DNA of 34,635 nt from a virus (Duplodnaviria; Heunggongvirae; Uroviricota; Caudoviricetes). The stretch lies in the IMG/VR virus record IMGVR_UViG_3300027754_000043. One strand, 5' to 3'. The notes beneath the pieces are model-generated. The model searched no databases. It worked only from the letters and a program-made list of their open reading frames with translations, and had not been told where the DNA came from. Both the position numbers and the translations under genes were made by a program. Within the stretch, counting starts at the first letter, position 1; every line of letters begins with the position of its first letter. Positions 5,119-33,735 of this stretch are shown one piece after another.

Positions 5119-5940
5119 TTATTTATCTTTATCAATGAATTTTTGTAATCTTTTCTGACTTTTGTGAAATTCATATGATTTTGTAATATGTTTTGGAGAT
5201 AAATTAAAATTAATTTGTAAATTATCTAAAATGTCAGCAATTAAACGTTCTTTTTCACTTACGTTATTAGTTTTTTTATCTAATAACTCAATAATCTTTT
5301 TTAATTGAGTAACAAAGTGTTTAGGAAGACGTTTTAATATTCTAGATTGGTCTGAATATATTTTAATATTGCTAGTTTCTTTTGTTTTTTTCTTTTCACT
5401 GATTAATTGCTTTGCAATTGTAACCGATTCTTTTAAAACATCACCATATTTTACAACCCATGCAAGATCTGGTGCTGGTTCTATCGGTGCTTCTGGCATC
5501 GATGGTTCTGCTGGCATAGCACCACCTCCGCTAGATTCTTTAGATTTTAATGCTTCTTTGTCATCAGCACCTAAACCTTTAACATCATTTAAACTAAGTT
5601 GCAATTCTATTGTATAATCATCGTTTTGACCGAACCCAGTATATGGTACAAGTTTAACAACGTTACGACGTACTAATGATAACAATGTTTCAGGTGTTAA
5701 ATCTAACTCAGCACCACTTCTTCCGATAAACTCACGAATACCAATATCAGATGTAGAATAAATAATTCCTAAATGGGTTGTTCCATACGCATCAAATTTA
5801 CCTAAGAATTTTTCTTCTGCAGGTGTAAATAATGTATCATCAGAAGTAGCACCCGCGGCAGTATTACTGTCGCTAGGTGCCTGTTCCAATATCATTTCTT
5901 TCAATGTGTTTTCAATAATATGTCGACGTTTTTCAATCAT
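5119..5940 (-). CDS. hypothetical, probable virion/internal protein
   Basis: 273 aa; LKEMILE/Q leader-like site; Pro-rich linker. Confidence 0.7.
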   Translation of the reverse strand: MIEKRRHIIENTLKEMILEQAPSDSNTAAGATSDDTLFTPAEEKFLGKFDAYGTTHLGIIYSTSDIGIREFIGRSGAELDLTPETLLSLVRRNVVKLVPYTGFGQNDDYTIELQLSLNDVKGLGADDKEALKSKESSGGGAMPAEPSMPEAPIEPAPDLAWVVKYGDVLKESVTIAKQLISEKKKTKETSNIKIYSDQSRILKRLPKHFVTQLKKIIELLDKKTNNVSEKERLIADILDNLQINFNLSPKHITKSYEFHKSQKRLQKFIDKDK

Positions 5941-6122
5941 ATCTCTTTTGATTCAGCTAAATTAATTGAACGATAAGTTGTTGATAATTTTTTTAATTCA
6001 TTAATTGACTTACGTGCTATAACTCCAGCTTTTTTAACTTTTTTATCTCTGAAACGTTCGTGATTTTCTTTAAAATCTGCCCATAACTGTTCCATTACTT
6101 CAAATACTTCTTGTGATGTCAT
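5937..6122 (-). CDS. Bacteroidota histone H1-like (Hc1-type) protein
   Basis: KKAGVIARKSINELKKLSTTYR resembles the KAAGTRARK..LEL.KL.KE.R pattern; 61 aa, basic. Confidence 0.75.
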   Translation of the reverse strand: MTSQEVFEVMEQLWADFKENHERFRDKKVKKAGVIARKSINELKKLSTTYRSINLAESKEI

Positions 6123-6158
6123 ATTAACCTTTATTTATTTATATATATAAATATCAAA

Positions 6159-6350
6159 TTATACAAATTTATCCATAAATACGTGTACGTTTGGGGTTGA
6201 TACTTTGTATGTGGTAAATTCTGTCAATTCGATATATACATTTCCATTTTTTTCATAAACCTGCATTATATGTGCTGTATTAATAAATCTAGACATGGTA
6301 GTACCATCTTCATGTATTACAATAACATGTATAAAATTAGGTTTATTCAT
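6159..6350 (-). CDS. hypothetical protein (FlbD-like INxxHI motif)
   Basis: 63-aa ORF with RFINTAHIMQVYE. Confidence 0.6.
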   Translation of the reverse strand: MNKPNFIHVIVIHEDGTTMSRFINTAHIMQVYEKNGNVYIELTEFTTYKVSTPNVHVFMDKFV

Positions 6351-6880
6351 TAGTCACCTGTATATCCTTTATTGAATGGACTTTGAGACGGACCTCCACC
6401 AAAATCTCTAGGATTTAGTTCGATACTAGATTTAGTTGGAGAACTAGTTTGTTGTCTTAATTTACCAATCTTTGTTTGTAACTCATATGATTGTGCAACA
6501 GTAATATCAGATAAAGAACGACCTACTTGTTTTAAGTATTTTGAAACCAAAGTTTTTACATTCGCATCTTCATTTGCAATTTTTTGTATCCCACGCAATC
6601 CAGACATATTACCAGAGCTACCTGGCATATTTGCTAAACTATATTTTGTTAAATCTATCTGATCTTGTGTATCAGCAGGAATTGCATCCCATTTTGCATT
6701 AACTAATTCATCCGGGTTCATTGCCTTTGCTGAATATAACTCAGTTTTGCGATCGTTGTCTGTCATTTTTTCCCATACTGCATCAGCTGAATATGTTTCA
6801 GCAATAATTCGTTTAGCTCTGCTAATTTCTTCCTTAAGGATACGAACATGTGTCGGGTTATTAATATCGAATATTTTCAT
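6350..6880 (-). CDS. hypothetical protein
   Basis: 176-aa ORF; ILKEE/IIAE leader-like sites. Confidence 0.7.
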   Translation of the reverse strand: MKIFDINNPTHVRILKEEISRAKRIIAETYSADAVWEKMTDNDRKTELYSAKAMNPDELVNAKWDAIPADTQDQIDLTKYSLANMPGSSGNMSGLRGIQKIANEDANVKTLVSKYLKQVGRSLSDITVAQSYELQTKIGKLRQQTSSPTKSSIELNPRDFGGGPSQSPFNKGYTGD

Positions 6881-6915
6881 AATATCGTTTCTTTTACTAT
6901 ATATATCTATTTAAT

Positions 6916-8238
6916 TTAATTTAACGGATTTAACGCATCCAATGTATTTAACGGATTTAATGAAGATTTTGAATATTCCTCATAAAATTCAGCTGCTTTC
7001 GTTTTTCGTTCAGAAGAAATATGTGCCGGTCGTTCATAAAGTTTTGCAAATAAATATGCAGCATCTTCTGGCGTAATATCTTCATTTTTAAGTTTCTCGG
7101 CTAATGCGCTATGATTAGTACTCAACTCCCACCATAAAAATTCCAATTGTCCATTAACAGACCATGGATCTAATCCTTTATTTGTACACCAAGCTTCAAA
7201 TCCACGTGGACCCCACCAACGTTCATTATGCCATTGTGCTAATCCATTTGATGTACCATGATCACCTGGGTTATCTGTTTTAAATCCGGATTCGATGAAT
7301 AAATTACCAGCAATACCTGCAGCACCGGTTTCAGATAATCCTTTATCTACAAAGAAATCTATTATAGTATTAACAGTTGCAATATCATTATGACTAATAG
7401 TTCTAGAACGTTTTACTTTCTTAGGAACTAGGTTAGCTAAATTAGAATCATCTGTATCAGCAACCGTATCTAATTTACTAATTGTAGTTTTATCTATAGT
7501 ACCAGTTGGGTTTATATCTCGATCTCGTTGAAATTGCGATAATGCAATTTTTGTGTTACTATCCAATTTCCCAGTAACTTCGTCACTAGTTTCTAAATAG
7601 CCTAATGATAACAATTTAACTTGTAGATCTTTTATTTGTTCTACATTAGCATCAATCATACCATCAGTATCAACAACATCTAAATCATCAGTCGATTGTA
7701 ATAATGGTAATACATTTTGCATCCATTGTTGTGCTATTGTATTCTGTGCATCTTCGTCTAACATGGTACCATGTCGTATAAAATCTAATTTACTGAATTC
7801 CGTTGTATCGATAACAACATCGGCAATATCTTGAGATTGAATCCATTCTGATATAGATTCATTGAATTCATATAATTCAGGTTTATCAACAAATTCTGAT
7901 GTGGTATTCGTTATAGCAACTAATATGCAATTATATTCTTTAACTAACGAAAACATTGATGCTAGTGTCTGTATAATAACATCTGCATTTTTTGTATTTT
8001 TAATTAAACCAGGAAATATCGTTACTACATCATATTCTTTTAACATATTAGTTTGAAGTATGTTATTTAAATCTGTAATCGATGCATTTACTCGACCATT
8101 TATTTCGCCGTTAAGATATCTAGAACGTAATACCTTTTTTGCAAAACTTGTTGGCGAAACGGTTTGTATATCTCCTATAAACAATGCTTTATAAACACGC
8201 TGTTCATCTTCTAATAATAATGAGGTTAATCGTATCAT
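6916..8238 (-). CDS. modular peptidoglycan hydrolase: degenerate SGNH-like domain + PG-binding domain + phage tail lysozyme (Phage_lysozyme2-like)
   Basis: LQVKLLSLGY...TGKLDSNTKIALSQFQ...PTGTID (PG_binding_1); GAAGIAGNLFIESG...GLAQW...QLEFLWWEL...YERP (lysozyme2); N-terminal LFIGDIQT resembles SGNH block I without Ser. Confidence 0.85.
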   Translation of the reverse strand: MIRLTSLLLEDEQRVYKALFIGDIQTVSPTSFAKKVLRSRYLNGEINGRVNASITDLNNILQTNMLKEYDVVTIFPGLIKNTKNADVIIQTLASMFSLVKEYNCILVAITNTTSEFVDKPELYEFNESISEWIQSQDIADVVIDTTEFSKLDFIRHGTMLDEDAQNTIAQQWMQNVLPLLQSTDDLDVVDTDGMIDANVEQIKDLQVKLLSLGYLETSDEVTGKLDSNTKIALSQFQRDRDINPTGTIDKTTISKLDTVADTDDSNLANLVPKKVKRSRTISHNDIATVNTIIDFFVDKGLSETGAAGIAGNLFIESGFKTDNPGDHGTSNGLAQWHNERWWGPRGFEAWCTNKGLDPWSVNGQLEFLWWELSTNHSALAEKLKNEDITPEDAAYLFAKLYERPAHISSERKTKAAEFYEEYSKSSLNPLNTLDALNPLN

Positions 8239-13989: not shown

Positions 13990-14225
13990 GCTATATACTC
14001 ATTTTTATTATAAATATTATCCAGTAATAAAGACAATACCTTTATACCGATATAAACGATGTGAATAAAAATATAGGGTATATCGTGTGATATTGTATAT
14101 AAAGCAGGATATAAAGGCATATAAGGGGAGGAATGTTTTATATGGGTACCATATCCTAATAAAGAGCACCTATATAGCAAAAAAATTACCCGTGCGGTGA
14201 AAATCTATATAACCTTCATCAGCCA

Positions 14226-14352
14226 GGGGTGGGTAAACGGGGTGTTAATGAAACCCTCCCCACCCCCCCTATATGACCCCTATATGACCCCTAAATACAC
14301 CCCCACCCTACCCCAGTACAATAGGGGGGTCTATCCCCACCCCTATATACCC
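14226..14352. other. G/C-run-rich non-coding tract (G-quadruplex potential on minus strand)
   Basis: About ten C3-C7 runs on plus, tandem CCCCTATATGA x2, and interspersed G-runs; sharply unlike the AT-rich surroundings. Confidence 0.75.
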
Positions 14353-14365
14353 TATATACGTTATG

Positions 14366-14614
14366 CTACCCTATTACCGGACGAGGTATGTCTATCATGT
14401 TGCGACGCTTCACTCCCTGGTATTCTGATACACCTATATTGTGTAAGGTTATCGATAACACGCTCCATGCATTGCGAGATCCATATGCCTCTCTGCTGTC
14501 ATCTCCATAGTACCATATGTCGAACATTAAGCTGTTCCATGCATTAAGCTCTTCTGTGATGATCAATTGGATCATTGCTTGTTTTGTCACTCGGGTTTTC
14601 ATTGCTACTCTCAT
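14366..14614 (-). CDS. hypothetical protein
   Basis: 82-aa ORF behind a class I promoter repeat. Confidence 0.7.
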   Translation of the reverse strand: MRVAMKTRVTKQAMIQLIITEELNAWNSLMFDIWYYGDDSREAYGSRNAWSVLSITLHNIGVSEYQGVKRRNMIDIPRPVIG

Positions 14615-14797
14615 CTCTCTTGTTATTAAATTAATATATCTCTTACTTCCTATATATAAAGATAAGGTTTATTTGGTTCGGATCCTAGTCTTTTGTTAAC
14701 TTTGTTTAATCTTTTTTTACAATGCAAAGCCGGGACCTTTTGGATCCCGTGGGCTTATTAAGCGTCTTGCTGCTTTGCTATTAGGTGGTGGTAATGT

Positions 14798-16255: not shown

Positions 16256-16369
16256 TTAATTAAAGATTATTGAGTAAACGAATGCCTCTCCGGCTAATGT
16301 TTGCTGTAAACGGATCATTTCTAATTGAGCTTGGCTCTTTGCTGGCGTAATTCTTTTAAAAGGTTTCAT
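16256..16369 (-). CDS. small hypothetical protein (37 aa, not in ORF track)
   Basis: MKPFKRITPAKSQAQLEMIRLQQTLAGEAFVYSIIFN with AAGAGATATG start context. Confidence 0.55.
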   Translation of the reverse strand: MKPFKRITPAKSQAQLEMIRLQQTLAGEAFVYSIIFN

Positions 16370-19126: not shown

Positions 19127-19348
19127 TTAAACTTTGTGCTGCTCTTTAATGCAATGCTTAATGTCGCCGATGGTACGGATCCCTTGCCTGGAATTGTCAA
19201 TTGCAATAACCTTAGTGGAATCCTTTAACAATTCAGCCAATGGATCGGTAAAGGTTAATTTGACTTGTCCATTGCCGATTCCAACTCGTCTAGCTATTGG
19301 CAGTACTTCGCCGGTGCTAGGTATTCTCACTCCGAATGTTGTGCTCAT
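19127..19348 (-). CDS. hypothetical protein
   Basis: 73-aa ORF, GAGATATG start context. Confidence 0.7.
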   Translation of the reverse strand: MSTTFGVRIPSTGEVLPIARRVGIGNGQVKLTFTDPLAELLKDSTKVIAIDNSRQGIRTIGDIKHCIKEQHKV

Positions 19349-20450: not shown

Positions 20451-20515
20451 ATCTCTTTCTTTTTATTAAAGATAAGCATTTTTCTTTTATCGTCCTAGTC
20501 TTTTGTTAACTTTGT

Positions 20516-20746
20516 TTAAACTTTTCTAGAATACCGGCTAGCATCAAACTCTTTAATTTCCCATTGTGCTTTAAGCACTTTTGGATGATCCTGATCGAAT
20601 CTAACACCAGTATCGTTACGGGTATTGTGGAAGTGTAAATAACGTCCTCGTTCTGACATTCCTAAATACTTCATACTCGGATAAGTAGTATCGATACACT
20701 GAACGATATATACATTGCCTTCTCTTAATAAATGTGTTCCTCTCAT
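20516..20746 (-). CDS. hypothetical protein
   Basis: 76-aa ORF, AAGAGATATG start context. Confidence 0.7.
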   Translation of the reverse strand: MRGTHLLREGNVYIVQCIDTTYPSMKYLGMSERGRYLHFHNTRNDTGVRFDQDHPKVLKAQWEIKEFDASRYSRKV

Positions 20747-20761
20747 ATCTCTTGTTTTAAA

Positions 20762-20836
20762 TTAATTTTCTAAATCCTCTCCTAGTGAAAATACTACTGC
20801 CAGTATTAATACTATTAATATTATAAAGCCCTGCAT
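20762..20836 (-). CDS. single-TM microprotein (24 aa, not in ORF track)
   Basis: MQGFIILIVLILAVVFSLGEDLEN; TAATG stop/start overlap with the upstream gene. Confidence 0.5.
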   Translation of the reverse strand: MQGFIILIVLILAVVFSLGEDLEN

Positions 20837-21078
20837 TAACCTCGCATTTTGCTAATACCTGAGTGAGCTATCTCAGCAATAATGTCAATTAATATGCGAG
20901 GATCGACCTCATTTATAAACGTGCAACCAGCACCGCCATAACCATATTCAGCCACTAACACGCCATCTACAAATATTTGTGCTAGATCCTCATCTAAGAA
21001 TGTTCTCACTTTAACTACTCGATCTTGCACCTCAAACTGTGATGCTACTGCGTTTTCTAAATTTCTCATATATTTCAT
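20836..21078 (-). CDS. hypothetical protein
   Basis: Start reassigned to ATG 21078 (MKYMRN), since the longer start lies inside the promoter repeat. Confidence 0.7.
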   Translation of the reverse strand: MKYMRNLENAVASQFEVQDRVVKVRTFLDEDLAQIFVDGVLVAEYGYGGAGCTFINEVDPRILIDIIAEIAHSGISKMRG

Positions 21079-21144
21079 ATATCTCTTATTTTTTATAAAT
21101 TTAAGCATTTTATATTTATCGTCCTAGCAAATTAGCAACTTTGT

Positions 21145-21324
21145 TTAAATTAATTTAACTAATGTATCATTATCTAAATTCCAGATCGTACCGCTTACAG
21201 TTGCTACGTCGACAGTATACTTTTTCTTTTTTACTACTGTCAAGTGATATATCTCTATATTGCCGCGATTGTGTAATCCCAATTCTACTACTTGACCTTT
21301 TGCTACTTCTCCTACTTCTATCAT
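21145..21324 (-). CDS. small hypothetical protein (59 aa, not in ORF track)
   Basis: MIEVGEVAKGQVVELGLHNRGNIEIYHLTVVKKKKYTVDVATVSGTIWNLDNDTLVKLI behind the class I promoter at 21360. Confidence 0.7.
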   Translation of the reverse strand: MIEVGEVAKGQVVELGLHNRGNIEIYHLTVVKKKKYTVDVATVSGTIWNLDNDTLVKLI

Positions 21325-21432
21325 ATCTCTCTTTATTTAATTAATAAACTTCCTATACTTAAAGATAAGCATTTTTCACTTCACGTCCTAGTCTTTTCAC
21401 AGAAAAGTTTCAACAAAAGTAAACATTTATTT

Positions 21433-21462
21433 CAGTAGTAAAGGATCCCGGTAAGGATCCCT
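21433..21462 (-). terminator. putative terminator closing the RNA operon
   Basis: Minus AGGGATCC-TTACCG-GGATCCTT then TACTACTG, echoing the ACTG tail of the other terminators; short U tract. Confidence 0.5.
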
Positions 21463-21476
21463 AACTAGATAAGAGT

Positions 21477-21529
21477 GGCCAGAATGAGAAGAGATATGAT
21501 AAGAGAGAGATATGAAACTCATTCTGGCC
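21477..21529 (-). ncRNA. candidate antisense/decoy hairpin RNA
   Basis: Perfect 12-bp stem GGCCAGAATGAG/CTCATTCTGGCC; 29-nt loop complementary to the AGAGATATGA start contexts. Confidence 0.6.
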
Positions 21530-21630
21530 GATAAGAAATGGATCGATCCAACGATCCTGCAATTATGATCCCGACGCCTTACACGGCTCTCCAATTGTTT
21601 CAGTGGTTACCGATCCACCGGGATACTATG

Positions 21631-21703
21631 TAGCGCGGGCTAGACTCGAACTAGCGATCTTCAGGTTATGAGCCTGCCGAGATACCAACTTCTCCACCGC
21701 ACA
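21631..21703 (-). tRNA. tRNA-Met(CAT), initiator-like
   Basis: Cloverleaf with anticodon loop CTCATAA, T arm GCTAG-TTCGAGT-CTAGC, unpaired 1:72. Confidence 0.85.
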
Positions 21704-21710
21704 ATATATT

Positions 21711-21775
21711 ATAGAGCCGGAGCCGGTAGGCGAACTGAAAGCTTAATTCCAGGCGCCTGTGGTTGCCGGCTCTAT
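21711..21775 (-). ncRNA. candidate long-hairpin RNA
   Basis: ATAGAGCCGG/CCGGCTCTAT closing stem with inner AGGCG/CGCCT and CTG/CAG helices; GC-rich; just downstream of a promoter motif. Confidence 0.5.
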
Positions 21776-21864
21776 GTTTAACCTAAATGTCTTTATGCCT
21801 TATTTCTATTTATATAATAGCAAATCTAAATCTAAAATCCAACCTAAATATCAACTATTTATTG

Positions 21865-22080
21865 TCTAAATATAAACCGTCTAAAAGCAGCCTACCTGGC
21901 CTAAATATAGCGTGTATATGCTGCGTCTAAAAATAGCCTGGATATGGTCTAAAAATCAATCCGGCATATTGCTCTAAAAATAGGATCCACTTCGTCTAAA
22001 AATAGATCCCACATATTATGCTCTAAAAATAGGATCCGGATTGGTCTAAAAATAAATGCTGAATAATGATCTAAAAATCA
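21865..22080. repeat. array of ten TCTAAAAATAG-like short repeats
   Basis: Units at 21865, 21880, 21900, 21926, 21948, 21973, 21995, 22022, 22045 and 22070 with variable spacers. Confidence 0.9.
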
Positions 22081-22275
22081 ATCAGCATCTCCCTCTATAA
22101 TATCCACACCAATTATATCAATGTCAAAGTCAAAGCAATCCGCTTCGAAGTCTACATCACCTTCACATATACAATCATGAGCCAGCTCCTTAGCTTCTTC
22201 TTCGGATGCGGCCTCCACCTCCACCGCAGCATTCTCGGTAATGGTTCTTTCTAAATATACTATGTACTTTGCCAT
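22078..22275 (-). CDS. DpnD/PcfM-like small acidic protein
   Basis: KYIVYLERTITENAAVEVEAASEEEAKE matches the VEVEAxSEEEA pattern; has its own promoter motif at 22290-22320. Confidence 0.7.
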   Translation of the reverse strand: MAKYIVYLERTITENAAVEVEAASEEEAKELAHDCICEGDVDFEADCFDFDIDIIGVDIIEGDAD

Positions 22276-22324
22276 TGTGTTTTTTATTTATAATATGAAA
22301 TATACTGCTAAAAACCAACCTCAA

Positions 22325-22578
22325 TCTAAAAATACGTTACTCCGTATAGCTAGCGAACCGAATGTACAAGTTCTAAAAGTGCGATTCTTCTAAAAATAGC
22401 CTACCCGGATCCTGCTAGAAATAGCCTAAAAATAGCTGGGTAATGGTGATCCTGGCCTAGAAATAGCCTGATCGTTCTAAAAATCAATGCTACGATACTC
22501 TCCGTATAGCTAGCAATCCGACCAGAAACCTCGTTATAGTGCGCCTAGTTCGGTTTTGCGGTTACTCCGTATAGCTAG
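22325..22578. repeat. second repeat cluster: CTA(A/G)AAATAG units plus three CTCCGTATAGCTAG copies
   Basis: GTTACTCCGTATAGCTAG at 22336 and 22561, core CTCCGTATAGCTAG at 22500; several CTAAAAATAG/CTAGAAATAG units between 22325 and 22486. Confidence 0.85.
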
Positions 22579-23146
22579 TGTTCTCCATGATCCCAATGTA
22601 TTACCTTTAATCCCATACACTAATATAAGAATAATATTTCACAGTACCAACCTTTCCGGCAACTTTATTTCGCGTAAACTGGAAAAATAATTGAGGTTTT
22701 TCTTGGATATGTGGAAAACCTTTTTACGCACTTTTAACGCACTCGACACCGTATCTGGATTACTGATATTCGTTACCAGGCGATAAAGAGTCTACGCCCC
22801 CCGTAAACATTGTATAGGGAGGGGTATATATATAACCTCTCTGTCCTGATGCTCCTAGACACACCACCACCCACAACCTCCACACCCGTATCTCTGAATA
22901 ATAAATGCATCTGAACAATTTAACTATATTCATGTTTACACCATAGACACCAGGTGACCTGAGCCACGACCTAATAACGTACTGAGCATACGTTGTCTTT
23001 TTTGTGCTATTTGTGTACGTATTAACTTTATTACTCTATATACTCGATGTATTGCTTTATGTATTAGTATTCGTGTTCGTTGCGTTATGCTTATAAACAT
23101 TCTAGTTCTATCCGGGAAATTGCAGGTTTACAAATTAGTCCGGAGG

Positions 23147-23329
23147 TTATGGTAAGTATTTAACTATTAACACCATTCCCATCAAAATTGAGTATATTGT
23201 GGTCATTGCAACTAACAAGGTCCACCCTTTCATATCTTCATCATAAACGTTATAATGTCCATATATTTTTTTAAACCTCAACAATCCGAAGATTGCATAC
23301 AATATGCTGATAATTGTTAGTGTGATCAT
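23147..23329 (-). CDS. small membrane protein
   Basis: 60 aa, two hydrophobic segments. Confidence 0.65.
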   Translation of the reverse strand: MITLTIISILYAIFGLLRFKKIYGHYNVYDEDMKGWTLLVAMTTIYSILMGMVLIVKYLP

Positions 23330-23333
23330 TGTT

Positions 23334-23510
23334 TTAATTTTTAGTTAATTGTTCTTCGTGATATAATTTGGCATACTCTTCCATTGCTTTTATGATGAAT
23401 CCTTTCATACAATCTTCATCTGAACCATATTTTGCTTCATATACTAATTTAGTAATTTCATACATACTTGGTGCACCTATTTCTCCGAATTCTTCAAATA
23501 TTTCTTCCAT
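23334..23510 (-). CDS. hypothetical protein
   Basis: Start reassigned to ATG 23510 (MEEIF), one base after the previous stop (TAAGATG). Confidence 0.65.
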   Translation of the reverse strand: MEEIFEEFGEIGAPSMYEITKLVYEAKYGSDEDCMKGFIIKAMEEYAKLYHEEQLTKN

Positions 23511-29081: not shown

Positions 29082-29240
29082 TTAGTCTAAATAAATATCG
29101 TGAAACACAATACAATATGCATCTAGTGCGATGCCTTGCTGGATAATGGATTCTCGGATCATCGGATCTTTAATATTCTCTAACGATGCAATGATTAAGT
29201 TTGCATATATCTGTGCAACAAAACGGATTACTGTTTTCAT
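29082..29240 (-). CDS. small hypothetical protein (52 aa, not in ORF track)
   Basis: MKTVIRFVAQIYANLIIASLENIKDPMIRESIIQQGIALDAYCIVFHDIYLD with AAGAGATATG context. Confidence 0.6.
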   Translation of the reverse strand: MKTVIRFVAQIYANLIIASLENIKDPMIRESIIQQGIALDAYCIVFHDIYLD

Positions 29241-33658: not shown

Positions 33659-33663
33659 ATATG

Positions 33664-33735
33664 AATTACCCATAGGACTCGAACCTACATTCTCCGGCTG
33701 TGACAGCCGACGCATTGATTTATGCTATAAGTAAT
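33664..33735 (-). tRNA. atypical/pseudo tRNA (Asp-derived CTGTCAC loop, TCA at the stem apex)
   Basis: Acceptor ATTACTT/GGGTAAT, D stem GCAT/ATGC without GG, T arm GTAGG-TTCGAGT-CCTAT. Confidence 0.5.

Follow-up and report, generated by a model that had tools for sequence, protein, structure and literature searches.

A structured non-coding RNA family of uncultured phages whose unpaired sequences are antisense to a start region common to many phage genes

The stretch of viral DNA analysed here (IMG/VR record IMGVR_UViG_3300027754_000043, Caudoviricetes; 34,635 nucleotides (nt), the whole of which is called the window) contains at 21477-21529 a hairpin whose large loop is complementary to the start regions of many genes of the same phage. 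This seed hairpin is part of a structured non-coding RNA of about 200 nt, located on the minus (gene-sense) strand directly 3' of a tRNA-Met gene. The RNA family is new and absent from Rfam, and the anti-start sequences are its most conserved, unpaired parts. The features of the sequence point, tentatively, to a trans-acting, multi-seed antisense RNA that is predicted to occlude a start region common to many of the phage's own genes.

Results

The seed hairpin and its complementarity to gene starts

The hairpin is formed by a perfect 12-base-pair (bp) inverted repeat, GGCCAGAATGAG (21477-21488) pairing with CTCATTCTGGCC (21518-21529), and encloses a loop of 29 nt (21489-21517) that reads UUUCAUAUCUCUCUCUUAUCAUAUCUCUU on the minus strand. 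The minus-strand fold has a predicted energy of -20.7 kcal/mol (z = -7.6; 0/200 shuffles as stable) and leaves the loop wholly unpaired; the plus-strand fold is at -22.5 kcal/mol. Two copies of CAUAUCUCU, the complement of the start region AAGAGAUAUGA, are carried by the loop, and seed 1 plus adjoining bases also contains the clade-wide loop motif UCUCUCUUAU. The hairpin is identical in a metagenomic copy of the locus that is near-identical to the window (L106). An intrinsic terminator was rejected as a reading of this hairpin: the loop has 29 nt where 3-8 nt are expected, ACUCUUAUCUAG comes after the stem in place of an immediate U-tract, and the consensus scan makes no call there. The homologous loop hairpin of relatives does carry a U-rich tail.

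The motif AGAGATATG is found 12 times in the window against 0.49 expected (shuffle maximum 3; 12 is reached in 0/100 shuffles). The minus strand has ten of these copies, nine at the starts of open reading frames (ORFs) of at least 40 amino acids (aa) and the tenth at the start of a 37-aa ORF at 16369; the two plus-strand copies both lie within the hairpin loop. Across the ATG of ten minus-strand genes, starting at 29240, 27798, 25463, 21324, 20746, 20450, 19958, 19571, 16369 and 5940, the loop has a contiguous Watson-Crick match of 11-12 nt, which at 16369 reaches 13 nt when one stem base is counted, and at the gene start at 19348 the match is 9 nt. Seeds complementary to the initiation regions of several mRNAs, as in base-pairing small RNAs (sRNAs), are thus present. 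An earlier reading made from the sequence alone (the sequence-only reading) had described the 12-bp stem with its 29-nt loop, the two tandem start complements inside it and pairing at 11 gene starts, and all three descriptions are borne out.

At least 11 contiguous pairs to the loop are available at 9/74 starts of ORFs of at least 40 aa, whereas among 300 dinucleotide shuffles of the loop the number of such starts averages 0.81 and never exceeds 8. The specific signal is the exact match including the AUG. The two seeds of the window match its two main start variants, AGAGAGAUAUGA and AAGAGAUAUGA, a fit that favours many targets over one. The next gene (21145-21324, minus), approximately 165-190 nt downstream of the loop, has two overlapping 12-nt matches to the loop in its start region.

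A conserved structured RNA

Relatives were found via the sigma protein encoded in the window and a conserved 22-nt non-coding stretch, giving nine distinct relatives of the non-coding region in addition to L106. The nine-relative alignment folds into a 5' stem-loop domain (P1), a small hairpin, a single-stranded UCAUAUCUCUCA and two hairpins whose loops read UUCUCUCU(CU)UAUCU, the second with a U-rich tail after it. The consensus fold comprises 52 pairs and 459 cells, 96.3% of them paired, with compensatory changes in 8/52 pairs, and none of 500 column shuffles folds as well. P1 of the relatives is 97% paired, with one compensatory pair and several changes from G-U to A-U or C-G.

An nhmmer profile of the relatives' RNA matches the window at 21624-21505 (E = 6.5e-8), and the alignment sets the first loop seed of the window against the conserved single-stranded CAUAUCUCUC of the relatives. 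Folded alone, the window RNA gives the same 5' domain, a small hairpin, the 12-bp hairpin and a 3' hairpin; at the position of the small hairpin (21540-21557) the relatives have a hairpin of different sequence. Invariant columns in the nine relatives make up 11/13 of the seed and 12/17 and 11/15 of the two loops, compared with 1/17 of the linker and 7/16 and 12/26 of the stems. Seeds in the unpaired regions of a structured RNA, another property of base-pairing sRNAs, are therefore found in the window (the loop) and in the relatives (the seed and both loops). Rfam 15, searched with the window (gathering and E-value thresholds) and seven relative loci, returned tRNAs alone and hence no homology to a described sRNA family.

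Of the co-oriented tRNA-Met and terminator-like hairpin that the sequence-only reading placed on either side of the element, the tRNA gene is indeed on the minus strand at 21630-21703; the hairpin at 21436-21467 has only a short U run after it and drew no call from the consensus terminator scan.

The strand is settled by the G-U pairs. Across the nine relatives the structure has 88 G-U cells against 4 A-C cells; the gene-sense strand is accordingly 96.3% paired and the other strand 78.0%, and an independent consensus fold yields -55.55 kcal/mol on the gene-sense strand versus -20.49 kcal/mol on the opposite one. Because the G-U pairs would be A-C mismatches on the opposite strand, the RNA is placed on the minus strand of the window, where the loop is antisense to the start regions rather than a mimic of them. 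The minus-strand RNA element of the sequence-only reading is upheld by this asymmetry and by the compensatory changes.

Recurrence of the seed in different carriers

A broader set comprised the window and 27 loci from a search with the sigma alignment (434,963 nt; sigma identity 59-77%). Within it, on the gene strand, AGAGATATG occurs 196 times, 178 of these at ORF starts, and the anti-start 9-mer CATATCTCT 37 times against 0.6 expected. The 9-mer has 29 distinct sites, 28 of which are non-coding, and a fold of -15 kcal/mol or lower lies within 76 nt after it at 28/29 sites versus 18.5% of 600 windows drawn at random. Of the 13 distinct sites of the loop motif TCTCTCTTAT, 12 are wholly inside hairpin loops, and the stems are all different. 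Among the newly added loci, 17/19 have AGAGATATGA as their commonest start 10-mer.

The carrier of the seed varies markedly among loci. A long structured RNA carries it in the clade of L003, L005 and metagenome loci, the long RNA of the window holding two seeds. In L114, L116, L119 and L122 the seed is followed by a structured hairpin and then by a terminator hairpin with a conserved loop. L004, and a second copy in L099, have it on short RNAs directly 3' of tRNA genes, with a terminator hairpin and U-run after it, and in L006 and L007 it stands directly 3' of the promoter-like TATTATATAC, a second seed variant being found in the terminator loop. Other carriers are 3' untranslated regions (UTRs), in which the seed lies 1-7 nt past the stop codon of an AAA ATPase gene, a gene of about 140 aa or the sigma gene. 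Among relatives, an ORF stop codon lies no more than 40 nt before the seed at 23/29 sites, usually 1-7 nt before it. In the window, the AAA ATPase gene has a 3' UTR (14711-14797, minus) without a seed, reading ACAUUACCACCACCUAAUAG where relatives have CAUAUCUCUCAA, and a terminator-like hairpin comes next. That the seed changes carriers yet stays ahead of a stable hairpin fits a trans-acting module.

The tRNA genes concerned in L004 (13553-13664) and L099 (1162-1268), both on the minus strand, are 107-112 nt long with a long internal insertion; they are detected by the Rfam tRNA model and missed by ARAGORN, and the short seed-bearing RNA and its terminator follow directly after each. The second loop hairpin, with its UUCUCUCUUAUCU loop, recurs in part in L099 as an inverted copy on the opposite strand, at approximately 6535-6595 (reverse-complement coordinates 1557-1617), some 3.5 kb away from the RNA gene.

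In the cultured-phage collection, near and distant DNA searches with 20500-23500, 5119-8238 and the RNA of L098 gave no match, and a search with 21340-21830 matched only at the tRNA-Met part. The matches of the sigma protein in that collection are all below 60% identity, those listed being at about 31% or less. By these searches the window has no near kin among cultured phages. The exact loop pattern had no match in viral contigs. Of 83 viral loci hit by a gapped seed-plus-loop pattern, L048 alone, from the contig that also gave L005, is real; the others were set aside as chance matches in unrelated DNA. The 5'-domain pattern gave 5 loci in viral contigs (2 real, 3 chance), 16 in metagenome contigs (10 real, 6 chance) and, in genome contigs, a single chance match in a GC-rich genome.

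Genomic setting

The window resembles part of a large uncultured phage, with 34% GC, nine tRNAs and ORFs called from 2219 to 33157 that are all on the minus strand. Apart from a sigma-70-family protein, an AAA ATPase and a lysozyme-domain protein, its products are mostly ORFans; PHROG hits were obtained for 8/67 proteins of the window and for 0/10 target genes. The features of the RNA locus are collected in Table 1.

Table 1. Features at and around the non-coding RNA gene, in window coordinates
Feature	Position	Strand	Basis and remarks
Start region of the next gene, AAAGAGAGAUAUGAUAG	21319..21333	-	Two overlapping 12-nt loop matches; candidate cis and trans target
First of 13 cassette copies, between the RNA and the next gene	21349..21416	-	Repeat family D1/D2
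3' hairpin, GGGAUCC core with two G-U pairs, then UUUACUACUG	21436..21467	-	Fold; weak terminator candidate, likely 3' end region of the RNA
Seed hairpin, perfect 12-bp stem and 29-nt loop	21477..21529	-	Sequence and fold
Anti-start seed 2, UAUCAUAUCUCUU	21489..21501	-	Complement of start variants AAGAGAUAUGA(UA)
Anti-start seed 1, UUUCAUAUCUCUCUCUU	21501..21517	-	Complement of start variants AGAGAGAUAUGA / AGAGAUAUGAAA
Small hairpin GGAUCG-UUGGAU-CGAUCC, between P1 and the seed hairpin	21540..21557	-	Fold
5' stem-loop domain P1	21567..21626	-	Fold and nhmmer homology; holds the conserved stretch AGCCGUGUAAGGCGUCGGGAUC
tRNA-Met (CAU), abutting the 5' end of the non-coding RNA	21630..21703	-	ARAGORN; Rfam tRNA 54.5 bits
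Promoter-like TTTGCTATTATATAAATAG, upstream of the tRNA and RNA	21807..21825	-	Read from sequence; conserved in L003 and L005

The promoter-like cassette TAGGAY-N17-TATCTT (64-113 nt) is present in 13 copies between 14607 and 21422, in a block of small ORFan genes. In each the promoter-like part is followed by TAAGTATAGG, and several copies continue with a conserved A/U-rich leader that ends in AAGAGAGAUAUG. At the position of the first copy (21349-21416) relatives have TTGACA-N17-TATCTT/TATATT, with TTGACA instead of TAGGAY. The cassette is reminiscent of the PeSLs, the promoter-terminator cassettes of T4-type phages. Downstream, the block is closed by a non-coding stretch of about 400 nt (13995-14380, minus) that is rich in G-runs and contains repeated TATAGGGG / GGGGTCATATAGGGG units.

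Upstream of the RNA, 21826-22080 holds approximately 11 TCTAAAAATAG-like repeats at 21-26 bp spacing and many GATC/GGATCC sites, just upstream of the promoter-like site of the tRNA and RNA, and in L003 and L005 the RNA is likewise preceded by a similar array, of ATTTTTAGA. For these repeats a role as iterons, regulator sites or phased A-tracts is conceivable. The promoter-like site is separated from tRNA-Met by a long GC-rich hairpin, ATAGAGCCGG...CCGGCTCTAT (21716-21780, minus), with TATAAT after it, 7 nt before the 5' end of the tRNA. In the tRNA cluster, a 73-nt tRNA at 33663-33735 (minus) has the anticodon UCA and is labelled 'SeC' by ARAGORN (Rfam tRNA 29.9 bits); at this length an opal-suppressor-type tRNA is more likely than a true selenocysteine tRNA.

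Discussion

A proposed trans-acting antisense RNA and the points against it

As proposed, a stable non-coding RNA would be made, probably by release from a tRNA-containing precursor, and would display two anti-start seeds in its large loop in the window, or three such sites in the relatives. Acting in trans, the seeds would base-pair to the start regions of numerous mRNAs of the phage, the next gene included, and the pairing would occlude ribosome binding and so repress translation of the gene set.

Several observations weigh against this proposal. One RNA gene would have to titrate the mRNAs of at least 10 genes, several of which have their own copy of the promoter-like cassette, and in the window the 12-bp stem that closes the seed-bearing loop restricts the length of a duplex with the seeds unless the stem opens. 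In relatives the seed sits 1-7 nt past stop codons, and at 3/7 sites of one type it is predicted, by the minimum-energy fold, to pair with the next start in cis. Predicted duplex energies are also less distinctive than the contiguous matches. The comparison with shuffled loops called for by the sequence-only reading separates the two measures: matches of at least 11 nt are reached by 0/300 shuffles, but duplex energies of -14 kcal/mol or lower, found at 15 starts against a shuffle mean of 9.4, are equalled by 18/300 shuffles, and those of -17 kcal/mol or lower, found at 7 starts against a mean of 2.9, by 20/300. With the energy-based enrichment thus marginal, composition (a pyrimidine-rich loop and purine-rich start regions) accounts for part of the predicted affinity.

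Seed and target are moreover conserved almost everywhere and so give no covariation signal. The co-variation that the sequence-only reading had looked to is not seen in L005, the lineage with changed starts, where GAGCCATG is found at 9/20 ORFs and GAGATATG at only 2/20 and the seed of the RNA is unchanged.

In L005 most of the start regions have shifted together, from AAGAGAUAUG to AAGAGCCAUG (9/20 ORFs; compare GAGCCAUG), and the old motif survives at the gene immediately downstream of the RNA. This could reflect concerted evolution or escape from the RNA.

The larger idea of the sequence-only reading, a master off-switch, retains the conserved RNA and its anti-start seeds and is weakened by the shift of the L005 starts without a change in the RNA and by cis folding in some relatives. 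RNA-based master control is accordingly put forward here as a doubtful possibility: up to half of the genes in the ORFan-rich block would share one start region, and a movable module with the exact complement, carried by the tRNA-linked structured RNA, by tRNA trailers and by 3' UTRs, would silence or couple the whole set.

Alternative explanations

Pairing in cis alone is the main rival and is rather unlikely to account for the family. On read-through transcripts the loop would sequester the start of the next gene, which would be translated only from transcripts of its own promoter; where the element adjoins a stop codon, translation of the next gene would depend on the opening of the paired region by an upstream ribosome, a form of translational coupling or insulation. 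Such a role is compatible with the two overlapping 12-nt loop matches of the next gene (start 21324) and with a 3' hairpin in the window that has no good U-tract and is not called as a terminator, which makes read-through plausible. It also accords with the 23/29 seed sites of relatives within 40 nt past a stop codon, with minimum-energy folds of L119, L122 and L115 that pair the seed with the start 55-85 nt downstream, and with a complementary downstream start at 5/7 stop-adjacent sites (by inspection). A single seed would however suffice for cis pairing, yet the family has two or three in loops on an elaborate conserved scaffold. The seed is invariant where the downstream start is non-complementary (L114, L124) and where it follows a tRNA and has a strong terminator (L004, L099); most loci place a terminator-like hairpin and promoter cassette between the seed and the next start, and a consensus fold of the seven coupled sites gave the central hairpin only, with no seed-start helix. 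A stop codon 1 nt before the seed and the next start 55-85 nt downstream form the classic layout of translational coupling, and thus the anti-start sequence is probably also used in cis.

Protein-sequestering RNAs such as CsrB and RsmZ present the same motif in several of their loops, the defining feature being many copies of GGA in hairpin loops. The pyrimidine-rich loops of the present family might likewise be protein-binding sites, either of a scaffold or sponge or of a nut/boxA-like site that loads an antitermination complex ahead of the cassette-rich block. The repetition of one motif over several loops, the conservation of the 22-nt stretch in the 5' domain beyond the needs of pairing, and the position of the RNA, heading the block with its 13 promoter cassettes, would all suit such a site. 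So would the resemblance of CUCUCUUA (loop) and CACUCUUA (21470-21463) to lambda boxA, CGCUCUUA (PMC2724277), from which each is one position off; the rrn boxA is UGCUCUUUA. In a nut-site comparison, CACUCUUA, an 8-nt spacer and a hairpin occupy 21470-21436 and CUCUCUUA is in the loop, the difference in each falling at boxA position 2. The change in the boxA-like match is the one tabulated for a mutant oligonucleotide, boxA5, whose sequence is CUCUCUUA (PMC2724277), and the clade-wide CAUAUCUCUC seeds are without the CUCUUA core. Protein binding leaves unexplained that the loops are the exact complement of the commonest start region, with CAU opposite AUG and the next base also matched, and is judged improbable. 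A sponge of the CsrB/RsmZ type does not fit, the loops being C/U-rich and containing no GGA. Searches of 67 window proteins against PHROGs (8 with any hit) and of 18 against Pfam found no known RNA-binding protein family.

A DNA-level element with no RNA function, such as part of a replication origin near the iteron-like array or an inverted remnant of a start cassette left by recombination, is very improbable. The approximately 11 TCTAAAAATAG-like repeats and the many GATC/GGATCC sites just upstream would agree with it, repeated start regions and promoter cassettes could recombine, and L099 does have an inverted partial copy of the loop hairpin elsewhere. The strand-asymmetric G-U pattern and the compensatory changes, on the other hand, indicate selection on RNA; loop and seed are invariant while stems and linkers vary, and different carriers bear the element in relatives where identity to the sigma protein of the window can be as low as 59-77%.

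The decoy that the sequence-only reading had offered as an alternative, a plus-strand transcript whose loop shows two mimics of ribosome binding site (RBS) and AUG and titrates a factor binding the start motif, is scarcely credible: the window hairpin folds as well on the plus strand (-22.5 kcal/mol) and its loop does read there as two start motifs, but the 88 G-U cells of the nine relatives become A-C mismatches, the opposite-strand consensus fold is at -20.5 versus -55.6 kcal/mol, the called ORFs and all nine tRNAs between 2219 and 34508 are minus-strand, and no plus-strand promoter stands out (6 promoter-like sites in the scan, 5.4 expected).

Comparison with known systems

In mechanism the nearest known system is c4, an RNA of phages P1 and P7 that is encoded upstream of its target within a single transcription unit and is matured by RNase P. 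Both its position and its maturation parallel the tRNA-linked position of the window RNA and the 12-nt match to the next gene. As in a c4-type arrangement, the loop of the window RNA is complementary to the RBS region of the downstream gene (two overlapping 12-nt matches), the single-transcript status of the pair being an assumption. Like the RNA predicted here, c4 is a small phage RNA whose complementary sequences are likely in loops; as its published description has it, these pair near the RBS and block translation (PMC12197685). The systems differ in reach, c4 controlling one operon (ant) and superimmunity in temperate phages, whereas the motif in question is common to at least 10 genes of the window and to 178 ORF starts in 28 loci. 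No homology to c4 was found, Rfam matching only tRNA and the phage collection only the tRNA-Met part.

The LhrC1-5 sRNAs of Listeria are described as having three seeds, all of which can pair with a purine-rich region upstream of the start codon, and one LhrC RNA could bind two or three mRNAs (PMC4132741). Their design, with several seeds per molecule and one in the terminator loop, is the three-site layout seen in the relatives of the window RNA. LhrC and the UCCC-motif class (RsaE, RNAIII, SprD, FsrA) are bacterial chromosomal sRNAs that target host mRNAs through pairing of UCCC with the Shine-Dalgarno sequence; the window RNA, in contrast, is a phage RNA set against the phage's own start region including the AUG, with the motif CAUAUCUCU / UCUCUCUUAU, and shares no homology with them. 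The statement in the sequence-only reading that no equivalent had been described is thus too strong, since c4 and LhrC work in closely similar ways.

Small RNAs beside or between tRNA genes are also known from lytic phages: the band C/D RNAs of T4 and sRNA1 and sRNA2 of PAK_P3 are abundant and are proposed, without proof, to base-pair or silence translation, and they have no known targets (PMC4933390). Each PAK_P3 sRNA has, by the same account, a single 11-nt match in the phage genome (PMC4933390). The window RNA differs from these tRNA-cluster RNAs in its complement to a motif at many gene starts and in its conservation across a clade.

The literature searched, which did not extend to subscription journals, yielded no phage RNA that is antisense to a start motif common to many of the phage's own genes. 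To our knowledge, very few sRNAs of virulent phages have a known function, and the known targets are mostly host genes or one phage operon. In T4, the repressor RegA and the endoribonuclease RegB bring about a coordinated post-transcriptional shut-off of early mRNAs via a signal in the initiation region; the analogy is functional only, the recognisers there being proteins and the one proposed here an RNA.

Implications

If the trans-acting antisense reading is true, a phage that keeps a uniform start region on many genes and encodes a matching antisense RNA would have a simple class switch, and master control by RNA would parallel the control by the RegA and RegB proteins of T4. As the family is conserved and its seeds are clear and short, the idea can be tested in vitro and in reporters even without the host. 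An RNA-based reading would account concretely for the identical start region of 10-14 nt that is found on dozens of small phage genes unrelated to one another.

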